This document shows, in pieces, positions 53,171 to 63,429 of a stretch of 64,000 bases of DNA. Under the pieces are notes generated by a model. It did no database searches. It saw nothing but the letters and a program-made list of their open reading frames with translations, and had not been told where the DNA came from. Numbering within the stretch: position 1 is the first letter of the stretch; each line of letters starts with the position of its first letter. Location: contig OY968764.1 in NCBI GenBank assembly GCA_963695335.1, forward strand, positions 832,001 through 896,000, given 5' to 3'. A program made the position numbers and the translations under genes. The DNA comes from an uncultured bacterium. Lineage in GTDB: Bacteria; Babelota; Babeliae; Babelales; Vermiphilaceae.

Positions 53171-55072
53171 CTATACATTAAAGTACGAGCGGTAAAGAAG
53201 CAAAAAACGATACTTATCCTTAAGGATTACAGCAATGGAAATAACGGAAGTTAAAGTATTTCCGGTAACGGATGGTGAAAAATTAAAAGCATATGCGACA
53301 ATAGTCTTTGACAATGCGTTTATTATTCGAGACCTCAAAGTTATTGAGGGAATCAAAGGGCTATTTGTTTCAATGCCATCACGCAAACGTAAAGATGGAA
53401 CATTTCGTGATGTTGTGCATCCCCTAAACCCAGAAACTCGCAGCATGATTGAAGAGCATGTTGTGCATGAATACAAAAAAGTTATGGATCTTGGTGGAGC
53501 GCATCCAGTATCGGATGAAGAGTAGTAGATAATAAATTTGATAATTTTCTTTTGGGGCGTGGCCAAGCGGTAAGGCAACAGGTTTTGGTCCTGTGATCGG
53601 AGGTTCGAATCCTTCCGCCCCAGCCATACATTACCATCGGTTGCTTTCTTGATAGCATCAAATGGTTTTTGTACGTCGTAGACGATGTTTTCATCTTGTA
53701 GGCGAATGTTCTGAAGTACAAGTGTAATTAATTGTCGTCTTTCTTCTAGTTCCGAACTTTCAAATAAATTAAATGCGTGCTTGGTAATTTCAAGCACGTG
53801 TTTTGTTGTGTTATAATAATTATCTTCAGCATCGTTAAGTTGGCTGAGTCGTAGATTGATATCTTCTTTCTGTGCTGTGAATGATGCATGAAACTTGTCG
53901 TATTGTTCGTCGCTAATCTTGTCTTTTAGTTTATCTATGTAGAGTTTATCCATTATGTTGGTAATAGTTTTCAGTTCTCCGGTAAATTTATCGAATTGAT
54001 TGTTATGAAATTCCATTTTATTTAGATGAAGTTCCTGAAGAGTTTCTGCAATCTCTTTCCGTATGTTATCCGGCATTTGAAGAGCTTTAAAAAATTCACC
54101 CAATTGTTTTGTTATTTCATCTTCTCTAATCCATTTTGCCCCGTGTTTGCCATTATATTGCGTGCAATGATAATAGACATGGCCCTTGTGGCGTTCAGGT
54201 GATATTGAGAGTCCACATTCATAGCAACGAATAAGGCCGCGATAGAAGAATGGTAGTCCGGCATATTTAAAAGGTTTCTTTTTGAAGCCATCTTTTATGT
54301 TCTGCACTTGTTGAAACAGTGATTGTGAGACAATAGGTGTATAGCAATGAGGATATGATTTACCTTTTACAATCATGGTTCCATGGTAAAAAGGATTCTG
54401 TAATATTTTAGCAAGATGAGACTTGAACCATGAAATTCCAAAATCAGTTTTGATTTTTTTGCAGAGTAATTCCATTGAATAGCCGCCTGTAGCATAGAGT
54501 TCAAAGGCTGTTTTTACTATAAAGCGATTATGTTCGTCTACAATGATAGCGGTTTTTTCATTTTCAAGTTTAATGTTTTTGTAACCGAATGGTGCTTTCC
54601 CGAGCCATTCTCCTTTGCGTAACTTTTGTTCTTGTGCTCGCTTTACGTTATCGCTGATTGCATCTGAATAATACTTTGCGAGGCCTAGGCTCATGCTAAA
54701 TGTAAATTTCTCAGTAGCAGATATTTTGCTGCTCAATATTTGTCCGTCAGAAACAAAATGTATTTCTATTTCGTCACTGAGCGCTTTTTCATAAAGTAGG
54801 GAAATGCGTTTATCGAAAACGTTTCTTGAAAGACGGTCAACCTTATCAAAACAAACGATGACCTTTTCTTTTTGTTCGAGAATGAAATCTACAATGCGAT
54901 CGAATGCGTCGCGTTGATTCTTGTATGCACTTTCATCGAAGCTGCATAGTCTGACAATCTCGAAATTTTTGTTTTTACAGTAATTTTGAAGGCGTGCTTC
55001 TTGAGCAGGAAGTGAGTTGCCGGCTTCACGTTGTTCTTCTGTGGATACTCTTGCTATAATAATTGCTTTCAT
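53171..55072 (-). CDS. Large serine recombinase; codons after ~484 read antisense through tRNA-Gln and spoVG
   Basis: ARVSTEEQ, SLPAQ, DRLSRN, APFGY, CYECG zinc ribbon, coiled coil. Confidence 0.9.
   Translation of the reverse strand: MKAIIIARVSTEEQREAGNSLPAQEARLQNYCKNKNFEIVRLCSFDESAYKNQRDAFDRIVDFILEQKEKVIVCFDKVDRLSRNVFDKRISLLYEKALSDEIEIHFVSDGQILSSKISATEKFTFSMSLGLAKYYSDAISDNVKRAQEQKLRKGEWLGKAPFGYKNIKLENEKTAIIVDEHNRFIVKTAFELYATGGYSMELLCKKIKTDFGISWFKSHLAKILQNPFYHGTMIVKGKSYPHCYTPIVSQSLFQQVQNIKDGFKKKPFKYAGLPFFYRGLIRCYECGLSISPERHKGHVYYHCTQYNGKHGAKWIREDEITKQLGEFFKALQMPDNIRKEIAETLQELHLNKMEFHNNQFDKFTGELKTITNIMDKLYIDKLKDKISDEQYDKFHASFTAQKEDINLRLSQLNDAEDNYYNTTKHVLEITKHAFNLFESSELEERRQLITLVLQNIRLQDENIVYDVQKPFDAIKKATDGNVWLGRKDSNLRSQDQNLLPYRLATPQKKIIKFIIYYSSSDTGCAPPRSITFLYSCTTCSSIMLRVSGFRGCTTSRNVPSLRLRDGIETNSPLIPSITLRSRIINALSKTIVAYAFNFSPSVTGNTLTSVISIAVILKDKYRFLLLYRSYFNV
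53235..53525 (+). CDS. spoVG: SpoVG family nucleic-acid-binding protein
   Basis: MEITEVKV, LKAYATIVFD, GLFVSMPSRK, FRDVVHPLN. Confidence 0.92.
   Translation: MEITEVKVFPVTDGEKLKAYATIVFDNAFIIRDLKVIEGIKGLFVSMPSRKRKDGTFRDVVHPLNPETRSMIEEHVVHEYKKVMDLGGAHPVSDEE
53553..53626 (+). tRNA. tRNA-Gln (TTG)
   Basis: Acceptor TGGGGCG/CGCCCCA, anticodon arm ACAGG-TTTTGGT-CCTGT, T arm GGAGGTTCGAATCCTTCC, encoded CCA. Confidence 0.96.
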
Positions 55073-55223
55073 GCTGCTCTGATTTGTTAAGGAAGTTTAA
55101 AAATGGTTTAGAACTATTATTGTAGCATGAAGAAATATCAGTTGCTATGTTATAAATTAGGGTATATTTATTTTTGGGGAATCAATGATTTTTCTACTAA
55201 AATGAAATATCGGTGATAATTTT

Positions 55224-55785
55224 TTATAAGATAAGACTATCGTATGTACTCTCGTGACCAAGAGACTTAGTCGTTGCGCCTACTTTATTACCATTGAACT
55301 CACGCATTTTTAAATACATGTCTTCTCGGTAATCTAGCTCATCAAGAGATAGGCCTTTATATCCTCGATGTGGAACCTTTTGGACATGTTTACAATATTC
55401 TAAAAGGTGAAGGGCTCTATTTTTCTTTACACGTAAGTAAGGAAGAATATTTTGAATGAACTCTGCCACTCGGTTCTTATCTCTCATATACCAATGATAA
55501 ATTGGTTTTGAGTTAGGTCTACTTTTGCGAGCGCCATCGATGTGTACATAACCGAATTTCATTTCATTGACTATAAAGTCAATCGCTTCTGGTTCAATCA
55601 TTGCTATTTTAATACCAGGCAAATAAGTAATAGCCCAATTTTCTACAGTCTTTGGAAACTCCAAAGCTCTGTCAGTTGTTCTATTTTTAGTCTTACGCTT
55701 ATGTTTAAATATCATAAAGCACCCATCTGCATCCATTATTCCTGCTATATACGCCCAATGCGTTTTGCTCTGGTTATTAATGCAT
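55224..55785 (-). pseudogene. LAGLIDADG homing endonuclease with frameshifted start
   Basis: WAYIAGIMDADGCF motif; the RBS-preceded ATG at 55785 reads ATG CAT TAA, 1 nt out of frame. Confidence 0.75.
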
Positions 55786-55941
55786 AAATATCCTTTAATG
55801 TTTGTTGTATCTATATCGTGATGGCATACATTGATATTTATGTTTAGACTTTTCGTGTAATCGCTCTCGGTTTAATGCCCCAATATTAACTGGCTAAAGG
55901 GGCAGAAAGCGTTGTAGGTGTAGTTAATATATATACACTCC

Positions 55942-57174
55942 TTACGTAGCTTTTTTTTGTTCAAACCAGGTTTCGATTTTTTTTCTATGCTGGTATGCAG
56001 AACAATTAAAGCATTGTTTGCCAGGTTTAATGTTTGGAAGTTCAGGTGATGTTATGCATTGTAAAATTTCATCTAGTGTTTCTTCGATCCATGAATAATC
56101 AATCGAGACTTTTATAACTGTAGTTTGAAACTTTAGCTTTCGTTGGTACGTATCAATCGTGCTAAAAGGGTTAAAAACATATTCATTTGAAGAAGTAGTT
56201 TTGCCGAGTATAACATCTGTATAGTCATATGTTGATATAACAGGTTTATCTAATATTAAATAGCCAATATCACTTGTATGAAAGTTATTTTTGTTCAACA
56301 GATAAGAGTAAAAAGAAATTTGTCGTCTATAGGATGCGCCTAGCGCATCATCTATGCTTATCATGTCTTTGGATGTTGTTTTAAAGTCAACAACAATAAG
56401 TTGTCCTGATTGATTTTGTAATACTTCGTCAATGATTCCAGTTAGAATGAAATTACGAGACTTATCATGAAACCTAATTCCGCCTTGCCCATAGTGTGAA
56501 TTTTGCCATATTGGTATATCTTTGTGATTAAATGGAATGGCTGAAATTCTCTCGCTCATTAGTATAGGATGAGCTTTTTCTACCTGTCGACATTGGTGAA
56601 ATTCATCTTTTAGGAGATTGTCATTTGCATTAGAAAGCGTAAATTTATCGTTATCGTAATCTCTTTTAATTTGACATTTTTTGACAAGATAAAAACATCG
56701 CTTGCAATCGAAATATGATTTAATATCATTGTGGCTGATGGTAATAGATTCGGTGATAGATCTATTTAATGGTAATGAATCAACGACGTCTGTAACTGTT
56801 AGGCCAAGCACATCGATGTATGAACGAATTTTTAAGAATTTTATAGAAAGTTCGAATTCTGGATGATCATTATTTACTTGAATGGGATATCGTTTTTCAT
56901 AGTATTGACCCGATATGTCATGATGCAAAATAAAGCTTAAAGCATAATGATCCAGGTCATAAACGACTTGTTGTTTTATGAAAAGATTATTTTTGATAAG
57001 TTCATTATTTATCGTATTGATGAGATTGGTATAGTCAGCATCAAAATCTTTATGAGTGAGAGTTATAGGTTCTGTTTTAATTCTCTGAGTTGCTTCCCAT
57101 AATTCGTTATAGGATGGATTATCAGCAAGTTCAAAAAAGAAACAAGGAAGGTTTCGGCGAATGTGTTTTTCCAT
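55942..57174 (-). CDS. PD-(D/E)XK nuclease (RecB/Cas4-like)
   Basis: GIIDEV...VVDFKTT, QISFY, Cys pairs CKRC and CFNC. Confidence 0.8.
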   Translation of the reverse strand: MEKHIRRNLPCFFFELADNPSYNELWEATQRIKTEPITLTHKDFDADYTNLINTINNELIKNNLFIKQQVVYDLDHYALSFILHHDISGQYYEKRYPIQVNNDHPEFELSIKFLKIRSYIDVLGLTVTDVVDSLPLNRSITESITISHNDIKSYFDCKRCFYLVKKCQIKRDYDNDKFTLSNANDNLLKDEFHQCRQVEKAHPILMSERISAIPFNHKDIPIWQNSHYGQGGIRFHDKSRNFILTGIIDEVLQNQSGQLIVVDFKTTSKDMISIDDALGASYRRQISFYSYLLNKNNFHTSDIGYLILDKPVISTYDYTDVILGKTTSSNEYVFNPFSTIDTYQRKLKFQTTVIKVSIDYSWIEETLDEILQCITSPELPNIKPGKQCFNCSAYQHRKKIETWFEQKKAT

Positions 57175-57409
57175 AGAATATTTAGTTTAAGGATTACCAA
57201 TTTAATAAGTATCTTCAAAACTAAACTCATCTTTAAATAATAAAGCTTAATTGCTATAAAATAAGCTTTATTATTAATAAAGTATAAACAAATTGTTAAT
57301 ATTTGTCGAGTAAATTATTTATATTAACAAATTAAATACGAACAATATTGATTGGGTAATGAAAGATTTTTATGTTATTTTCTATATATTTCGATAAAGG
57401 AGGTCTGCG

Positions 57410-58042
57410 GTGACTCATTGGGGATGGTATTGGAAAATAAAAAAGAAACATTTAGCAAAAAAAAATTGTTCTTCTATGGTAAAAATAGATTCGTTTCATC
57501 TCTATAAAAATAATATGATGACGGGATTTAGGGTTGATCCACTTGATATTAATGCTGAGCCAGAGCCAAATTTTTTAAAGATTGTCTATGGGAAACGTAA
57601 AGAGCATTCTTATATAATTCGAGTTGCCAGATTATCTTGTAATTACGGTGGATTTAGAAGTTATTTTCGATGTCCTTTGTGTGATAAACGCATGAGATTT
57701 CTTTATTTTGCAGAGAGAAGTATTTTTCTATGTCGTAAGTGTTTAAACCTTGGATATGACACTCAGCGTTTTAGGCCTACTATGCGATATGAGTATATTA
57801 GTCAAAAGGTGAAGAAGTTTGTGCGGAATAAAGGTGGAGATTTGGATTGTTATAAAAAACCACCTCGCATGCATGAGGATACGTACCAAAGACTTAAAAG
57901 TAAGCAATTTTACTATGAACATAAATCATATCAGGCAACTAATCAGGAACTTCGTAGATGGCATGGTAAAAAAATGGAAACATATTTGGATAGTTTTTTC
58001 GATTATGTTGATGAGTCCAAAGATTGGCGTAAAATAACCTAA
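57410..58042 (+). CDS. Zinc-finger hypothetical protein
   Basis: CNYGGFRSYFRCPLC...FLCRKCLNLGY; AAGGAGG RBS. Confidence 0.75.
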   Translation: MTHWGWYWKIKKKHLAKKNCSSMVKIDSFHLYKNNMMTGFRVDPLDINAEPEPNFLKIVYGKRKEHSYIIRVARLSCNYGGFRSYFRCPLCDKRMRFLYFAERSIFLCRKCLNLGYDTQRFRPTMRYEYISQKVKKFVRNKGGDLDCYKKPPRMHEDTYQRLKSKQFYYEHKSYQATNQELRRWHGKKMETYLDSFFDYVDESKDWRKIT

Positions 58043-58290
58043 TGGACTAACACTACGAAGTATTGATATGTTGAATAAAATTGAAGCAGGTTGATGTTGT
58101 TATCAATTCATATAATGGTTTTACAAAAGGGTTTTTTTGACTGTTTCATATAAAGGTTGAAATATTGAATCCCCCCGTTAGTTTTGATGGCAAAAGGAAT
58201 AGGGGGGCTGTATTCAATTCTTCAACTTAGATTGTTTTGTGGATAAAAAGGTTTTGATACTACTGCTTTGTTTACGATTGAGAGTTAGGT

Positions 58291-60636
58291 TCAATTGTTT
58301 TCAGGCTCATCAATTATGTAATATTCATCGTCCTTTTTTTTCTTACCTTCTTTACATATAAGTTTGCCTTGGTCAACAAGCTCGCTCAATATAGGGTCAT
58401 ATTCCTTGGCTCCGCCATCAAATTGTTTTGAGGTTAATATTGTTTGGCGCGTTACGGTTTTTTTATCTTGGATACGTTTACTAATCCAGTTTATTAAGGT
58501 GCGACATTTTCGTTGGTGATGCGATTCTCCAAATTCTTGTTCTAAAAATCCAATAGTAGATTTAATTGCAGGGTTGAGGAAATGAAAAGCCTTTATTATT
58601 GCATCTCCCGATATTTCTATACTGTTGTGATCTATAAAAAGTTGCATTATCATTGCGATTTTTAGAAGAGCAGGACTCCATCTTTTTAGATATGGTTGAA
58701 TCAGTTTAATCGTTTTATCGTTGCAAGCTCGTGCTGCACAATAAATAAGTATATGGTAACTATGAAAGATTCTTCTTGCATCTGGAGTTAGAGAAAAGGA
58801 TCGTTCTTCTCCTATAGATGTGATAATACGGTCTATATACATTTTGAAAGTCATTTCTTGATTCTCATCAGATACTGCCTGACGAAAAGGCAATGCCGGT
58901 GGAATTTTATCGTTGGATGGTGGAGTTAGTATAATGAGTCGAGCAAAAAAACCGCTTGGAATATCACTCAATTTCATATTTTCTTGAATCCAAGATGCTG
59001 TAGATACACCACAAATCGATATGAAGGGTTTTTTTAATATACAATCTCCTTGTGTTTTAGTTTTATAGCGATAACATGTGGGCACATCATAGAGCTCTGT
59101 CATAATAGCTTTGAAATCATTGTTATGTGTTTTATCCAGGTTTTGTAACCATCCTCCAAATTCACTGGCGAAGATAACCCCTTTATGCTCTTGGGCTAAG
59201 TATTCCAAAAGAGCTTCAGCGGTTATTTTAGTTGGAAGGATAATATTTTCTCTTGATTTGTTTAATTGTTCTTCGGTTAAAGAGCTTTGTTGTTGTGATC
59301 CTGTTTGCAATTCTTTTATTTGAGCAAGTATCTGTGTTTGCAAGTCATAGGCAAGCTTTGCTCCTTTATTGAGAGCGGTGGTTTTGAATTGTCCGCTATT
59401 TGCAATACAAAGAATCCAAAGATTGCTATAAAGAGTTTGGAAGTATTCTCCTTCTGGTATAAAAACTTTGGTGCCTAAATAACCAGACATCATAGAGATT
59501 ACGGATGCTGTAATTATAATTGGATGTGCGTTAGTGGTCTTTTGTATTGACGATATATATTCTCTGAGTGGAGTAGGAAATTTTTTTAATTCAAATTTTT
59601 TGCATGGATCATTGTCACTGAGAAAGTGTTCTCGAGCAACTCTTTTGCCGGCTTCGCTTTTGGCATAGGCTTGAATGAGTTGCTCTCTTACTTCATCAAT
59701 GCCTGCTATTTGAGCAAGATCATTAAAATCAGTGGCATCTTGTTTTTTTTGGTTTGGAAACTCAGGTATAACAAACGAGCAGTCATTAAATTTATTGATT
59801 GCGTCATGAGCTTTCATTGTGCCTATTTCATCATTATCTGCGGCAACAATAAAGATTCTTTGAGGGAATCTTTTTTTTAAATTATCCAGAACTACTGAGA
59901 TATTACCCGCATCAAATGCTACAATTGTTGGTTTTTTGATTGCTTCGTAAATAGATGCACATGTTGCATAACCTTCGCCAATGAACATGACATGTTTATC
60001 ATCAGTTAAATTGCCTATTAAATGGTAGTTTCCTTTTTTCTCGCCACCAGGAAAAAATTTTTTACATGTTTTTCCTTCTTCCATGGAAATAAATTGTAAA
60101 GATCGTAGTTCATCTTCATTATTATACAGAGGAATAACAAGAGAGGGGTATCCTTGTAGATTATTGCTAAATCTGACGGTATTGCTTGGTTCAATACCTT
60201 TGACACTGATGTATTGTAGGTAGTCATTTGTAGATGGCGTTATGGAACATTGCTCCCAAAAGCTTTGAGCTGATTTTGCAGCTTTTTCTTGGTTTTCACG
60301 AATATTATTTTCTGTCTTTAATATATTGAGGCGAGCAATTTCTTTTAATTCTGCGCGTTCGTCATCATTAACAGAAGTGTCTTGATCAAAAGATTTATAT
60401 GTATGTTTTATTCCATCTTTCCATGACGCAAAAACAACATTCAAGAAATGGTTACCTTGAGATGAAGTGCCTTCATAGGCAATATACCATTCATCTTTTT
60501 TATGTTTATTATTGTTGCTTGAGTATCGATGAATTTTAGCATCAGTAATAAGATCACCATCAAAGGTGAGGCCCTTCTCTGCCATATATGATTTACAATT
60601 TTCTTTTAAATTAAATCTTTTTTCGATATTATGCAT
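58291..60636 (-). CDS. Toprim primase fused to DUF3987/YfjI-like helicase
   Basis: IGEGYATCAS, AFDAGN, AADND, TDFNDL; ANSGQFKTT Walker A-like; SEFGGW. Confidence 0.85.
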   Translation of the reverse strand: MHNIEKRFNLKENCKSYMAEKGLTFDGDLITDAKIHRYSSNNNKHKKDEWYIAYEGTSSQGNHFLNVVFASWKDGIKHTYKSFDQDTSVNDDERAELKEIARLNILKTENNIRENQEKAAKSAQSFWEQCSITPSTNDYLQYISVKGIEPSNTVRFSNNLQGYPSLVIPLYNNEDELRSLQFISMEEGKTCKKFFPGGEKKGNYHLIGNLTDDKHVMFIGEGYATCASIYEAIKKPTIVAFDAGNISVVLDNLKKRFPQRIFIVAADNDEIGTMKAHDAINKFNDCSFVIPEFPNQKKQDATDFNDLAQIAGIDEVREQLIQAYAKSEAGKRVAREHFLSDNDPCKKFELKKFPTPLREYISSIQKTTNAHPIIITASVISMMSGYLGTKVFIPEGEYFQTLYSNLWILCIANSGQFKTTALNKGAKLAYDLQTQILAQIKELQTGSQQQSSLTEEQLNKSRENIILPTKITAEALLEYLAQEHKGVIFASEFGGWLQNLDKTHNNDFKAIMTELYDVPTCYRYKTKTQGDCILKKPFISICGVSTASWIQENMKLSDIPSGFFARLIILTPPSNDKIPPALPFRQAVSDENQEMTFKMYIDRIITSIGEERSFSLTPDARRIFHSYHILIYCAARACNDKTIKLIQPYLKRWSPALLKIAMIMQLFIDHNSIEISGDAIIKAFHFLNPAIKSTIGFLEQEFGESHHQRKCRTLINWISKRIQDKKTVTRQTILTSKQFDGGAKEYDPILSELVDQGKLICKEGKKKKDDEYYIIDEPENN

Positions 60637-60698
60637 GTCAGTTCCTATTAAGTGTGAGCCACTGAAGATGATGCTTCAGTGGCTTCTTTTTGGTTATA

Positions 60699-60971
60699 TT
60701 AAGTGAGTATGATTAATTTTTGTAGGACTTCGCATGAAAAATTGTGCTGTTCATTTGAATCGATCAAACCATACGAGCAAAACAATATGAGATTTTCGCT
60801 GTCGCAGCTTTCGATAGATGCTATGTACGATCCTGGATTATCTTTTTTCTTTAAGTGATGTCTTTGTCCATCGGTATATAAGCGCCCTAGTAGTACAAAC
60901 CCTTTTTTCTCCATGTCCCGTCTTGTTAGAAACTTGAAGTAGGGTAGATAGTTAGTTTGTATTATATTCAT
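60699..60971 (-). CDS. Hypothetical protein
   Basis: In apparent operon with primase; ATGA overlap with upstream ORF. Confidence 0.55.
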   Translation of the reverse strand: MNIIQTNYLPYFKFLTRRDMEKKGFVLLGRLYTDGQRHHLKKKDNPGSYIASIESCDSENLILFCSYGLIDSNEQHNFSCEVLQKLIILT

Positions 60972-61126
60972 TGTTTCTTCCTCTGGTGCGCTTGTTGTGC
61001 TGTAGGAGTTATCTTTTCCCTATGGTCTATTTGAATCAAAAGTTGGAAGAATGAAATGAGTCTTTGTTTTTCTTCAGGCGTGAGTTTTGTTGGGATTGCA
61101 TTACTTACTAATTCTCCTTTATTCAT
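60968..61126 (-). CDS. Small hypothetical protein (52 aa)
   Basis: Manual ORF MNKGELVSNAIPTKLTPEEKQRLISFFQLLIQIDHREK...; abuts both neighbours. Confidence 0.55.
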   Translation of the reverse strand: MNKGELVSNAIPTKLTPEEKQRLISFFQLLIQIDHREKITPTAQQAHQRKKQ

Positions 61127-61369
61127 TTAGTATTCCTTGGTGTAAATATCTGCGCCATTGTGGGCATGCATGCGGTCTTCAAGGAATGTAAGGACTGCTT
61201 TTTTTGGATACAAAATTTTGTGTTTCAGCTTGATGTAAGCGGGACTATTTGATCGTTTTCTGGCTAGATATGCTGCATCAATTGATGCATAGATTCCCAG
61301 ATATACGAGGTCTTGTGCTGATAAGAATTCGTTCATTTGGTTGAGCTTGTCTGATAAAGCATTATTCAT
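61127..61369 (-). CDS. AlpA/excisionase-like HTH protein
   Basis: EFLSAQDL...SPAYIKLKHKILYPKKAVLTFL pattern; leads the primase operon. Confidence 0.65.
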   Translation of the reverse strand: MNNALSDKLNQMNEFLSAQDLVYLGIYASIDAAYLARKRSNSPAYIKLKHKILYPKKAVLTFLEDRMHAHNGADIYTKEY

Positions 61370-61533
61370 GGAAAGCCTCTTTATTTAAGAGAGTTCAATG
61401 AAGATGTGAGAGGAAATGCTTTAGGATATATATACAAAAAAATGTATATATTATATATTGATATTGTTATGAGGGTAACAATCCCAAAACATTAGAAAGC
61501 CAGTGAGTTGCCGCTTACTGGTTTTCGCTCTTC

Positions 61534-62604
61534 TTACTCTTCAATAAGAATCTCATTGATTATATTTATGGAATTTTGATTAAGAGCGAGCCATGTTGCT
61601 CGCATAGTATCTGGTTGTACTCGTCTGATTTTTGCCTCCTTACTTGCGTTTGTAAATGAATGATTTAGTCGAGATCGCGTTAATGATCTTCCATTTCTTG
61701 TAATAAATATGTGATTATTATCAGCTCGTTGTTCTTGTGTTGATGCTATGTAATCGTTTAATTTTTTCATGAACGTTTTTGGATATTCTATTGGTTTTTC
61801 ATATTTGATTTTATTTTTGTATTGTAAAAATCGAATGATATTATTTGAAAAATCGATTTGTTCAAGGGTTAATGTTAAAACATCAGAAATACGTACAGCT
61901 CCATAAAACATAGTGCTTGAAATCAGATAATCCCGATAATTATTTTTTGCTAAGAATGTATTAAATTTTTTTAACTCATCTAGAGAAAGAGCTTTTTGCG
62001 ATGTTTTTATAGTTGAGCGATAAACAGATCTTTTTTGAGAAGTTATGGGTAATGCTCTTCGGAACCATCCATTAGTAATACGTTCGAGGAATATACTGAA
62101 TGAAGTGTAACATTCGATACGAGCTATTTTAGCTGTCTTAGATAAATCATTCATGTGTTCTATGTATTGTAGTATTGATTTTTGGTTAATATGCCTTAAA
62201 CCACCTATACTGAATGCTCTGCCATCCGCAAAAGTAGTTGGGATAATATTTTTGTCCATTAGGTCTGTCATGTACGATGTGTATTTGATCTGCGTAGTGT
62301 TTTTTTCAAGCGTTATAAGCCAATTTTGAATGACTGCTGTGATAGGCATATAATCAAGCTCTTCAATTAATTCGTATTGGGCCCGATTTACAGCATTTCG
62401 AAGATTGAATAATTTAAGACTGTCATCTGTACGCTTGAGGATTGGATATTGCTTTTCTTTGGCATGTAATTCTTCTAGGAGTATTCTTCCTTGCGCAAAT
62501 TGCTCATCGTTTTTTTGTAGAATGATGATATCAGGGGATTCTTTTTGAAGTAGATTTGTTTCTTTATCTGATAGCTGTCGCATTAAAAGTTTCGTAGGTA
62601 ACAT
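61534..62604 (-). CDS. Tyrosine recombinase-like protein (chlamydial pGP8-D-like), C-terminally degenerate
   Basis: RDYLI...GAVRISDVLTL, IFITRNG, PDTMRAT; ends before the catalytic Tyr region. Confidence 0.75.
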   Translation of the reverse strand: MLPTKLLMRQLSDKETNLLQKESPDIIILQKNDEQFAQGRILLEELHAKEKQYPILKRTDDSLKLFNLRNAVNRAQYELIEELDYMPITAVIQNWLITLEKNTTQIKYTSYMTDLMDKNIIPTTFADGRAFSIGGLRHINQKSILQYIEHMNDLSKTAKIARIECYTSFSIFLERITNGWFRRALPITSQKRSVYRSTIKTSQKALSLDELKKFNTFLAKNNYRDYLISSTMFYGAVRISDVLTLTLEQIDFSNNIIRFLQYKNKIKYEKPIEYPKTFMKKLNDYIASTQEQRADNNHIFITRNGRSLTRSRLNHSFTNASKEAKIRRVQPDTMRATWLALNQNSINIINEILIEE

Positions 62605-62701
62605 ATCATTCCTTTGTTTGTATCTTTTCTTGAATGAGAAATATGTTACCTCAACAACAGGTTTCGCGCAAGTTTTATTTGCCAACGCGCATAATGTTTT
62701 G

Positions 62702-62806
62702 TTAAACAGATAAGTGAAGCTCAGAAAATACTGTTTGGATGTGTTGTAAACTGAAATCAAAAGTAATTGATCTGTTAAGGAATGAGTCCACTAGGGGCAG
62801 CCATAC
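62702..62806 (-). other. Displaced 3' end of the serine integrase gene
   Basis: From the att core reads VWLPLVDSFLNRSITFDFSLQHIQTVFSELHLSV*, in frame with integrase codon 482. Confidence 0.75.
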
Positions 62807-63089
62807 TACGCTAAAGCTTCGTATGGCAAGCCATACCTTTCAAATGATTGATATAAAAAATTTAAAGAAGTTTGATAGCTGAGCGTAGTATGCCCTTCGA
62901 AGCCTTCGGCGAAGTAGGGCTCTTTTTTTATCCTTGTAATTTTTTCAATGGTAAATCAAATTACGCTAAAGCTTCGTATGGCAAGCCATACCTTTCAAAT
63001 GATTGATATAAAAAATTTAAAAAAGTTTGATAGCTGAGCGTAGTATGCCCTTCGAAGCCTTCGGCGAAGTAGGGCTCTTTTTTTATCCT
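62807..63089. repeat. 128-bp tandem direct repeat (155-bp period), each unit bounded by inverted family B palindromes
   Basis: 62807-62934 vs 62962-63089, one mismatch seen. Confidence 0.92.
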
Positions 63090-63127: not shown

Positions 63128-63370
63128 ATGTATTACGTATATCTCATCAAGTCTCTGAAAAACCCTCATAAAACTTATATAGGTTTTACTAATGATATTG
63201 AACAACGTATGGAAAAACATAACAATGGTGCATCTATTTATACCTCTGATGATAGACCTTGGAAATTAGTTACATACATTTGTTTTGATGATCAATCTAA
63301 AGCCGTTGCATTTGAAAGATATCTTAAAGTTGGTTCAGGGCATGCATTTGCTCAGCGAAGATTGTGGTAA
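63128..63370 (+). CDS. Stand-alone GIY-YIG nuclease
   Basis: YYVYLI...TYIGFT, RMEKHNNG, YT...RPWKLV, FERYLK. Confidence 0.92.
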   Translation: MYYVYLIKSLKNPHKTYIGFTNDIEQRMEKHNNGASIYTSDDRPWKLVTYICFDDQSKAVAFERYLKVGSGHAFAQRRLW

Positions 63371-63429
63371 TTTATAAAAGTCATGTGAAAAACACATGGC
63401 TTTTTTTTTGTGTGTTTTAGTTTTGTTAT

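Follow-up and report, generated by a model that had tools for sequence, protein, structure and literature searches.

A Serine Integrase Gene Divided by Integration at a tRNA-Gln Gene in a Vermiphilaceae Genome: The Attachment Site and a Conserved C-Terminal Tail

A 64,000-bp stretch of the genome of an uncultured Vermiphilaceae bacterium (Babelota; assembly GCA_963695335.1, contig OY968764.1, positions 832,001 to 896,000 of the forward strand), called here the window, carries a mobile element of 9,177 bp (9.2 kb) positioned between a tRNA-Gln gene and the hairpin that trails tRNA genes of this host. As judged from the sequence, the attachment site of the circular element (attP) sits inside the last 33 codons of its large serine integrase gene, and integration would keep the catalytic, recombinase, zinc-ribbon and coiled-coil domains at the left end of the island (attL) and move a C-terminal tail to the right end (attR). 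The island is real, and the splitting of the integrase gene is well supported. The favoured reading, according to which the serine integrase crosses over at a dinucleotide in the tRNA end and the tail is functional, making the activity of the enzyme depend on the recombination state, was given a probability of about 0.68.

Integrated and Circular Forms of the Integrase

With its catalytic residues, recombinase domain, zinc ribbon and coiled coil, the protein is classified as a large serine recombinase. The N-terminal catalytic domain matched PF00239 (E = 3e-20), and PF07508 and PF13408 were also detected. The residues R8, S10, D79, R80, R83, C283, C286 and C303 were all present; R8, S10, R80 and R83 were invariant among 148 aligned relatives and D79 was kept in at least 90% of them.

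An earlier note on this DNA had described a 633-aa integrated open reading frame (ORF) running antisense through tRNA-Gln and spoVG, and the coordinates confirmed it: residues 485–633, the last 149, are the antisense of these two genes. Circularisation of the island by a script joined its ends into the 515-aa integrase that the note had proposed, with the stop codon ending at 62702. The two forms have 484 residues in common and differ in 31 residues swapped at the C-terminus, not in the 34 given before. The codon of Trp483 is the reverse complement of the CCA of the tRNA. Thus, the swap of the C-terminus and the location of attP inside the integrase gene held up, whereas of the proposed switch between two isoforms only the swap remained, the second isoform being reduced to the presence or absence of the tail.

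The significance of the 633-aa form was judged on 160 related loci (80 from GTDB and 80 from metagenomes). In 80 of the 160, the tRNA delimited by ARAGORN ended exactly at the in-frame Trp codon of the integrase (offset 0). The integrases of these 80 loci extended 2–97 residues beyond Trp (median 9; at most 3 residues in 39/80), and 3–97 residues in the seven other tRNA-Gln cases, in comparison with 150 in the window. It is highly improbable that the 633-aa protein and antisense transcription over tRNA-Gln and spoVG are selected functions. The 150 open codons past Trp, more than in any of the 80 relatives, speak for such selection, but the length varies even among the tRNA-Gln cases, and the antisense spoVG frame is open (101 aa) in the island-free relative L002 as well, without being in phase with the antisense tRNA there. 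The open frame is therefore a property of the host, and since the integrated C-terminus is arbitrary across relatives, the 633-aa form is best regarded as chance read-through. The form was accordingly rejected as a functional protein, and the idea of a meaningful isoform did not survive the comparison with relatives, which add a median of 9 residues.

A natural homolog in which body and tail are contiguous, P0028, was found (body 66% identical to this integrase; 17 of 33 tail residues identical). Its single-sequence structural model reached a predicted local distance difference test score (pLDDT) of 39, and a model based on a 148-row alignment was used instead (mean pLDDT 91; coiled coil at 335–439). 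This model matched solved serine integrases in Foldseek (PDB 9dxf, 9dxd and 9dxh; best E = 4e-19). The catalytic, recombinase, zinc-ribbon and coiled-coil parts end in it by residue ~480, before the swap point, and because all the canonical domains precede the tail, the integrated form would be predicted to retain every one of them. The tail of P0028 was modelled as two helices (485–492 and 502–515) with a pLDDT of 44–59. The tail is helical and amphipathic, with mean hydrophobic moments of 0.55 and 0.43 in its two halves.

Island Boundaries and Empty Sites

The 9-bp core CAGCCATAC flanks the island, as first noticed, and is present in exactly two copies in the window and seven in the whole genome. 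The pair alone is weak evidence, because 3 of 100 shuffles also gave two copies. The identity between the two ends of the island is exactly 9 bp, and the tRNA is kept intact without a long duplicated 3' end, again in agreement with the first description.

It had been set beforehand that in relatives lacking the island the tRNA-Gln gene should join DNA of the right flank, and this was observed in two genomes. In L011, the DNA after tRNA-Gln was 84% identical to positions 62798–62858. In L002, the closest relative (91% nucleotide identity), tRNA-Gln joins within ~50 bp to DNA matching position 63374 onward, with the same two genes downstream as in the window. No integrase gene was detected at any of the 19 tRNA-Gln loci of relatives, for which ~1.5 kb beyond the tRNA was examined. 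A ~35-bp scar of the integrase 3' end remains at the same tRNA-Gln in a genome of the same genus (L006, from position 2912 onward), which suggests an earlier visit of such an element.

The right border is also marked by the host. A stretch of 24 nt that comes after CAGCCA at 62804 has the same sequence as the 24 nt following tRNA-His of this genome, and one hairpin family was found directly 3' of CCA in 16 of the 35 tRNA and transfer-messenger RNA (tmRNA) genes of this genome. At the island site, the 3' arm of the trailer hairpin pairs with the GCCA of the tRNA itself. The hairpin may be a processing signal or a relic of another element of tRNA ends. Similar sequences occur phylum-wide, as 58 of 151 genomes matched the attR query, mostly through its hairpin part. 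In the window, the hairpin begins a 133-bp direct repeat with a 155-bp spacing (62802–63089), after which a gene for an 80-aa GIY-YIG nuclease is located (63128–63370). The repeat and the gene are absent from this place in L002 and therefore look like a separate small mobile unit.

Conservation and Reading Frame of the Tail

The check named in advance for the tail, that it should have homologs among integrases, gave a positive result with P0028 and with tails at the far ends of sister islands. A tail profile was built only from 15 contiguous forms and searched against both strands of island DNA. At 10 bits or more, it gave 11 matches on the integrase strand and none on the opposite one (4326 versus 4521 candidates). 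After one round of iteration, the search yielded 37 matches versus 1, and the tail of the window scored 59.9 bits against a profile that did not contain it, the 37 including 9 seeds, four duplicate loci and one six-copy array, and at least 6 core bases were common with the tRNA in 35 of the 37.

A definition of attR by DNA only, meant to avoid circularity, required the 6-nt core of the target preceded by the host hairpin. It returned 13 sites in 80 loci, 11 of them unique, and all 11 were open for 31–48 codons in the integrase frame. The median open length in the other two frames was 3 and 7 codons. In codons 14–29 of 22 tails, the ratio of nonsynonymous to synonymous polymorphism (pN/pS) was 0.55 as opposed to 0.73–1.56 in the five other frames, and third positions varied more than second ones (permutation p = 0.001). 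The tail measured 31–37 residues in 19 of the 22, and its hydrophobic pattern was kept. The first ~12 codons of the tail also form a DNA-binding arm, and their conservation is therefore no evidence for a function of the protein. The tail shows selection of the coding type and is conserved and in frame at attR.

The possibility that the overlap of attP and gene is mere compaction, with a tail slightly aiding folding or solubility, two forms acting alike and nothing being regulated, seems unlikely. It would agree with the position of all canonical domains before the swap and with the 2–150 arbitrary residues tolerated by integrated forms, and a trivial explanation of this kind is also listed in the consulted passages of the study on the DsiB integrase discussed below (PMC3146451). 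Against it, the 16 distal codons beyond the DNA arm keep frame, length and hydrophobic pattern, and they are lost by decay when not accompanied by an integrase gene. The latter was seen in a six-arm array lacking integrase genes next to the arms, in which the first ~13 codons (~40 bp) are kept and the distal tail decays. In this array (L058:1499-5487, G028:C8), successive tail-side attachment (att) arms are 697–846 bp from each other and enclose one to a few small ORFs; the arrangement resembles the cassette array of an integron and occupies the far end of a serine-integrase island.

Rather improbable is a role of the tail as a C-terminal degradation tag, which would make the enzyme produced from the circle short-lived and let integration stabilise it. 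The repressor of mycobacteriophage BPs reportedly carries such a tag and is stabilised by integration. Ala-Ala forms the terminus of five distant relatives with a tail (P0148, P0149, P0169, P0180 and P0238), and the tail of the element studied here ends in the non-polar Leu-Ser-Val. However, an Ala-Ala end is absent from all 22 close tails, the termini of which show no conservation (three of the tails had been cut at 36 residues), and the conservation lies in the internal helix rather than at the terminus. A conserved Ala-Ala degron was thus rejected for this subgroup.

Crossover Point and Choice of the Target tRNA

The identity between the tRNA end and attR reached the sixth base from the 3' terminus of the tRNA in 35 of the 37 matches of the iterated search and comprised exactly 6 bases in 24 of them; on the other side, it usually halted at CCA. 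When 26 attP sites were reconstructed, symmetry peaked after core nucleotide 5 (about bases 5–6), at 0.53 versus at most 0.33 at 13 other positions; the site of the window itself is only weakly symmetric. Such quasi-symmetry of the 26 sites about a shared central dinucleotide resembles that of large serine recombinases. The central dinucleotide is accordingly placed, on the basis of sequence comparison, at 53621–53622 and 62798–62799. With a crossover at 53621–53622, the element would supply the last four bases of the tRNA (discriminator and CCA). The TAC of the 9-bp core was rejected as a functional part of it, its match being incidental.

The consensus of the host arm corresponds to the T-arm of tRNAs and the central dinucleotide varies with the target. 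We infer that the integrase recognises the universal T-arm and that the type of tRNA is set by the two crossover bases, which would explain the switching of close relatives among tRNA types.

Distribution of the Related Loci

Eight tRNA types serve as targets in the 80 loci with an exact junction: Glu (22), Asn (21), Asp (14), Arg (13), Gln (7) and Pro, His and Trp (1 each). Another sequence follows Trp in 30 of the 160 loci, nine of which match a T-arm pattern, the others being tails or scars; 24 loci lack the end of the integrase gene. The remaining 26 have no in-frame Trp codon at the junction, so Trp itself is dispensable. A tRNA lies within 300 bp in 12 of them, and several (L120, L126, L148, L258, L260, L262 and others) still read tRNA-Asn antisense. 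Such junctions may reflect targets without an encoded CCA.

The records of the relatives include Babeliales, Patescibacteria and some Proteobacteria. Among 130 full-length representatives (50% identity), a simple pattern assigned an antisense-tRNA end to 48, whereas the stop codon comes within 5 residues in 15, another 22 were grouped as tails or other ends (some of these being antisense tRNA on visual inspection) and 45 remained unparsed. In a tree of 76 integrases, built quickly and supported only by the Shimodaira–Hasegawa-like approximate likelihood ratio test (SH-aLRT), the target had to change 17 times (the minimum being 7 and the mean after shuffling 45.5). The nearest neighbour in this tree (98% SH-aLRT) targets tRNA-Asp, yet it has the most similar tail (70%).

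Further arrangements were noticed. A second island of the same design is present in the same genome (G000:C1:494317-499980; 5,659 bp, tRNA-Glu), with an integrase 57% identical, a homologous tail and neither a tyrosine recombinase nor a primase. A cultured isolate of Legionella adelaidensis (L322:926-13546, NZ_LR134433.1) carries a 12.4-kb island of this design at tRNA-Asn with an integrase 31% identical; the tail located at the distal end of this island is fused to a second copy of the integrase 3' end. At G000:C1:445161-454905, ~179 bp following the CCA of tmRNA are repeated 9.5 kb downstream, the distal repeat being preceded by an integrase tail of a second type that ends in CCA; no integrase relative was found between the two repeats. 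The distance from an intact tRNA-Asp end to a tailed integrase is 2.7 kb in L096. The tmRNA-site and L096 arrangements could come from integrase-less circles using these sites.

No close relatives were found on viral contigs, where the best segments were mostly 21–30% identical, with one 66% identical fragment of 67 residues. The two best matches from a phage collection and the two best from plasmids were all integrated at tRNAs and none carried attP.

Other Genes of the Island

Features of the island and its flanks are listed in Table 1. The sharing of genes among 29 sister islands with the same ends was estimated by tblastn at 1e-5 with the ORFs of this island as queries.

Table 1. Features of the tRNA-Gln island and its flanks in window coordinates.
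Feature	Position	Strand	Remarks
Large serine integrase, integrated form, 633 aa	53171..55072	-	Pfam Resolvase 3-156, Recombinase 185-260, Zn ribbon 278-322
Host spoVG	53235..53525	+	Pfam SpoVG, E = 1e-32; read through antisense by the integrated ORF
tRNA-Gln(TTG), target	53553..53626	+	ARAGORN; last four bases (53623-53626, discriminator + CCA) putatively from the element
attL core	53621..53629	+	Putative central dinucleotide 53621-53622
HNH-like protein, cargo	55224..55736	-	phrog_5046, E = 1.5e-12
PD-(D/E)XK / Cas4-like nuclease, cargo	55942..57174	-	Homologs in 4/29 islands including this one
210-aa protein without family match, cargo	57410..58042	+	Homologs in 4/29 islands
Toprim-DUF3987 primase/helicase, satellite-type replication gene	58291..60636	-	Homologs in 3/29 islands
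Three small ORFs (90, 52 and 80 aa)	60699..61369	-	Weak phrog_2528 match only; each in 1-2/29 islands
Tyrosine recombinase gene	61534..62760	-	Pfam Phage_integrase, E = 6e-18; in 2/29 islands
Stranded integrase tail (P' arm)	62702..62803	-	Trp-Leu, 31 residues and stop; continues the integrase frame on the circle
attR core	62798..62806	+	Putative central dinucleotide 62798-62799
tRNA-trailer hairpin (B' arm)	62804..62827	+	Marks the original place of the tRNA's CCA; folds with GCCA, z = -3.6

The serine integrase was the sole gene common to the islands, the other genes of this island being found in at most 4 of the 29, and it is therefore taken as their probable common actor. No conserved accessory gene or recombination directionality factor (RDF) was detected in the 29 islands by tblastn, which could miss small or divergent RDFs. 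The three small ORFs are candidate directionality factors, and they are not conserved. A search for defence systems in the island gave no match beyond the Cas4-like nuclease, and a promoter scan stayed at the chance level (45 versus 48.8). On the circle, the serine integrase would be followed on its own strand by the tyrosine recombinase, the three small ORFs and the primase, and excision could thus couple their transcription. The tyrosine recombinase, a gene that the earlier note had passed over, more likely starts at the ATG at 62604, which lies 97 nt beyond the stop codon of the tail. A hairpin is located at 61495–61526.

The absence of a detected conserved RDF, with no island gene other than the integrase in more than 4 of the 29, leaves some room for a built-in directionality switch: the tailed enzyme would integrate and the tail-less chromosomal enzyme would excise, the tail thus replacing an RDF. 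RDFs of other serine integrases bind at the zinc-ribbon/coiled-coil module, and in the model the helical, amphipathic tail follows this very module. On the other hand, small or divergent RDFs escape such a search, only ORFs of this island were used as queries, and many islands look stable or decayed, which is unexpected for a constitutively excisive enzyme. Such a switch was considered less probable than not.

That the tyrosine recombinase integrates the island, with the overlap of the serine integrase gene and the junction being coincidental, is hardly credible. Its gene lies within 200 bp of attR and tRNA targets are described as typical of tyrosine integrases in an available part of PMC13626063. 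However, only 2 of the 29 islands sharing these ends possess it, the common core can be as short as 6 bp with a site symmetric about 2 bp, and the tRNA-Glu island of this genome lacks it in spite of an equal design. On these grounds, the tyrosine recombinase was rejected as the integrating enzyme.

Proposed Mechanism and Its Weighing

In the favoured reading, the island is an integrative element of the satellite kind, from a host of the Babeliales (Dependentiae) type, inserted at the 3' end of a tRNA by its serine integrase. One arm of attP is integrase coding sequence that would supply the discriminator base and CCA (Trp483) of the tRNA, and the other arm starts the conserved tail, which integration strands at attR. 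The integrated protein ends with whatever the antisense tRNA spells, its length of 633 aa being an accident of missing stop codons. The tail would act as a functional two-helix appendage, and the full integration-competent enzyme would be made from the circle only, or when a tandem neighbour supplies a tail. The integrated copy would give a tail-less enzyme of altered, probably lower, activity, which would stabilise the integrated state. The alternatives considered above are partly nested within this reading.

Several points weigh against it. The low pLDDT of the modelled tail (44–59) places no docking site on the body of the enzyme. A tail at the far end was detected at 8 bits in only 13 of the 50 loci with an island of at least 6 kb; in the others, it may lie beyond the 10-kb flank, be decayed or be of another type. 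Only 11 sites make up the attR set defined by DNA, the hairpin filter of which was tuned by hand, and the choice of the 22 tails through a protein profile introduces a bias in pN/pS and in the number of stops. By sequence, the tails are of at least two types, those of distant relatives being different, and the co-variation of body and tail is weak (Mantel rho = 0.35, p = 0.02). Three DNA read runs, thin in coverage (at most 11% of words), contained neither the circle junction nor the empty site, which decides nothing.

A broader scheme is tentative: a large clade would read the T-arm and 3' end of tRNAs and carry its directionality in cis without an RDF, the tail encoded at attP making the enzyme integrative and its loss making it excisive or dormant. 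Tandem insertions would then shuffle tails and re-arm resident enzymes, and they may drive integron-like cassette arrays such as that in L058.

If the tail changes activity or direction, recombination would rewrite the enzyme itself, giving a one-gene memory of state among serine integrases, a class used in genome engineering. Database proteins of this clade are mostly truncated integrated forms, so mining pipelines would clone the wrong protein, and with island repeats of only 6–10 bp they would miss the islands. An integrase that reads universal features of tRNAs, the type being set by two bases, could be retargeted simply.

Comparison with Known Systems

In domain order, catalytic residues, fold and att sites symmetric about a dinucleotide, the integrase is similar to phage-type large serine integrases (A118/LI, Bxb1 and phiC31). 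In those, attP lies beside the gene and is not known to lie inside it. Proviruses with serine integrases mostly use protein-coding targets, according to the part of PMC13626063 consulted, and the word 'tRNA' is absent from the main text of a survey of 6,207 serine integrases (PMC10083194).

Sites inside the integrase gene, interrupted by integration, are described for archaeal tyrosine integrases of the SSV type in the available part of PMC5861418. The integrase of the window resembles SSV-type and Mx8 integrases in having att within the gene and is unlike them in being a serine and not a tyrosine recombinase. The splitting of SSV-type integrases separates large parts of the enzyme, whereas here only a 31-residue appendage is lost. 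For Int of myxophage Mx8, a C-terminal swap at tRNA-Asp is said to be accompanied by lowered activity.

Tycheposons and satellites resembling phage-inducible chromosomal islands (PICI), as presented in the consulted parts of bioRxiv 2020.12.28.424599, are likewise small, integrated at tRNAs, optionally equipped with a primase/helicase, variable in cargo and accumulated in tandem. Tycheposons have an inward-facing, mostly tyrosine integrase and ~40-nt repeats of partial tRNA, unlike the serine integrase described here, which faces outward across attL and is associated with repeats of 6–10 bp.

No description of a serine integrase clade at tRNA 3' ends with a selected, detachable tail was found in the literature searched, the coverage of which was incomplete; the parts seen of PMC10083194, PMC12884075, PMC13626063 and the tycheposon preprint do not describe a serine clade at tRNA 3' ends.

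The closest counterpart is DsiB, the ssrA-specific serine integrase of Dehalococcoides islands, the gene of which always overlaps attL (McMurdie et al. 2011, PMC3146451, in the passages compared). Both are serine integrases of ~500 aa with the gene's 3' end over attL, running antisense into the target RNA gene to a stop outside the island. DsiB targets tmRNA, with a crossover in the T-loop and a 20-bp repeat, whereas here the target is tRNA-Gln, the crossover falls in the acceptor stem (2 bp inside) and the repeat has 9 bp. The dsiA/RecF/ParB/mom module of DsiB islands has no counterpart among the proteins of this island. A conserved tail does not appear in the passages compared (PMC3146451); here, selection on the tail was detected, and the family uses eight tRNA types. 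Publications already contain the idea of an att site within the gene, for one serine integrase as well as for tyrosine integrases. The excerpts on DsiB contain the proposal that its full function is confined to the circle or to a place downstream of a tandem island supplying the 3' fragment (PMC3146451), and, likened to DsiB by its published description rather than by its sequence, the element of the window may work in the same way. Should the tail change activity or direction, the proposal of 2011 would become directly testable.

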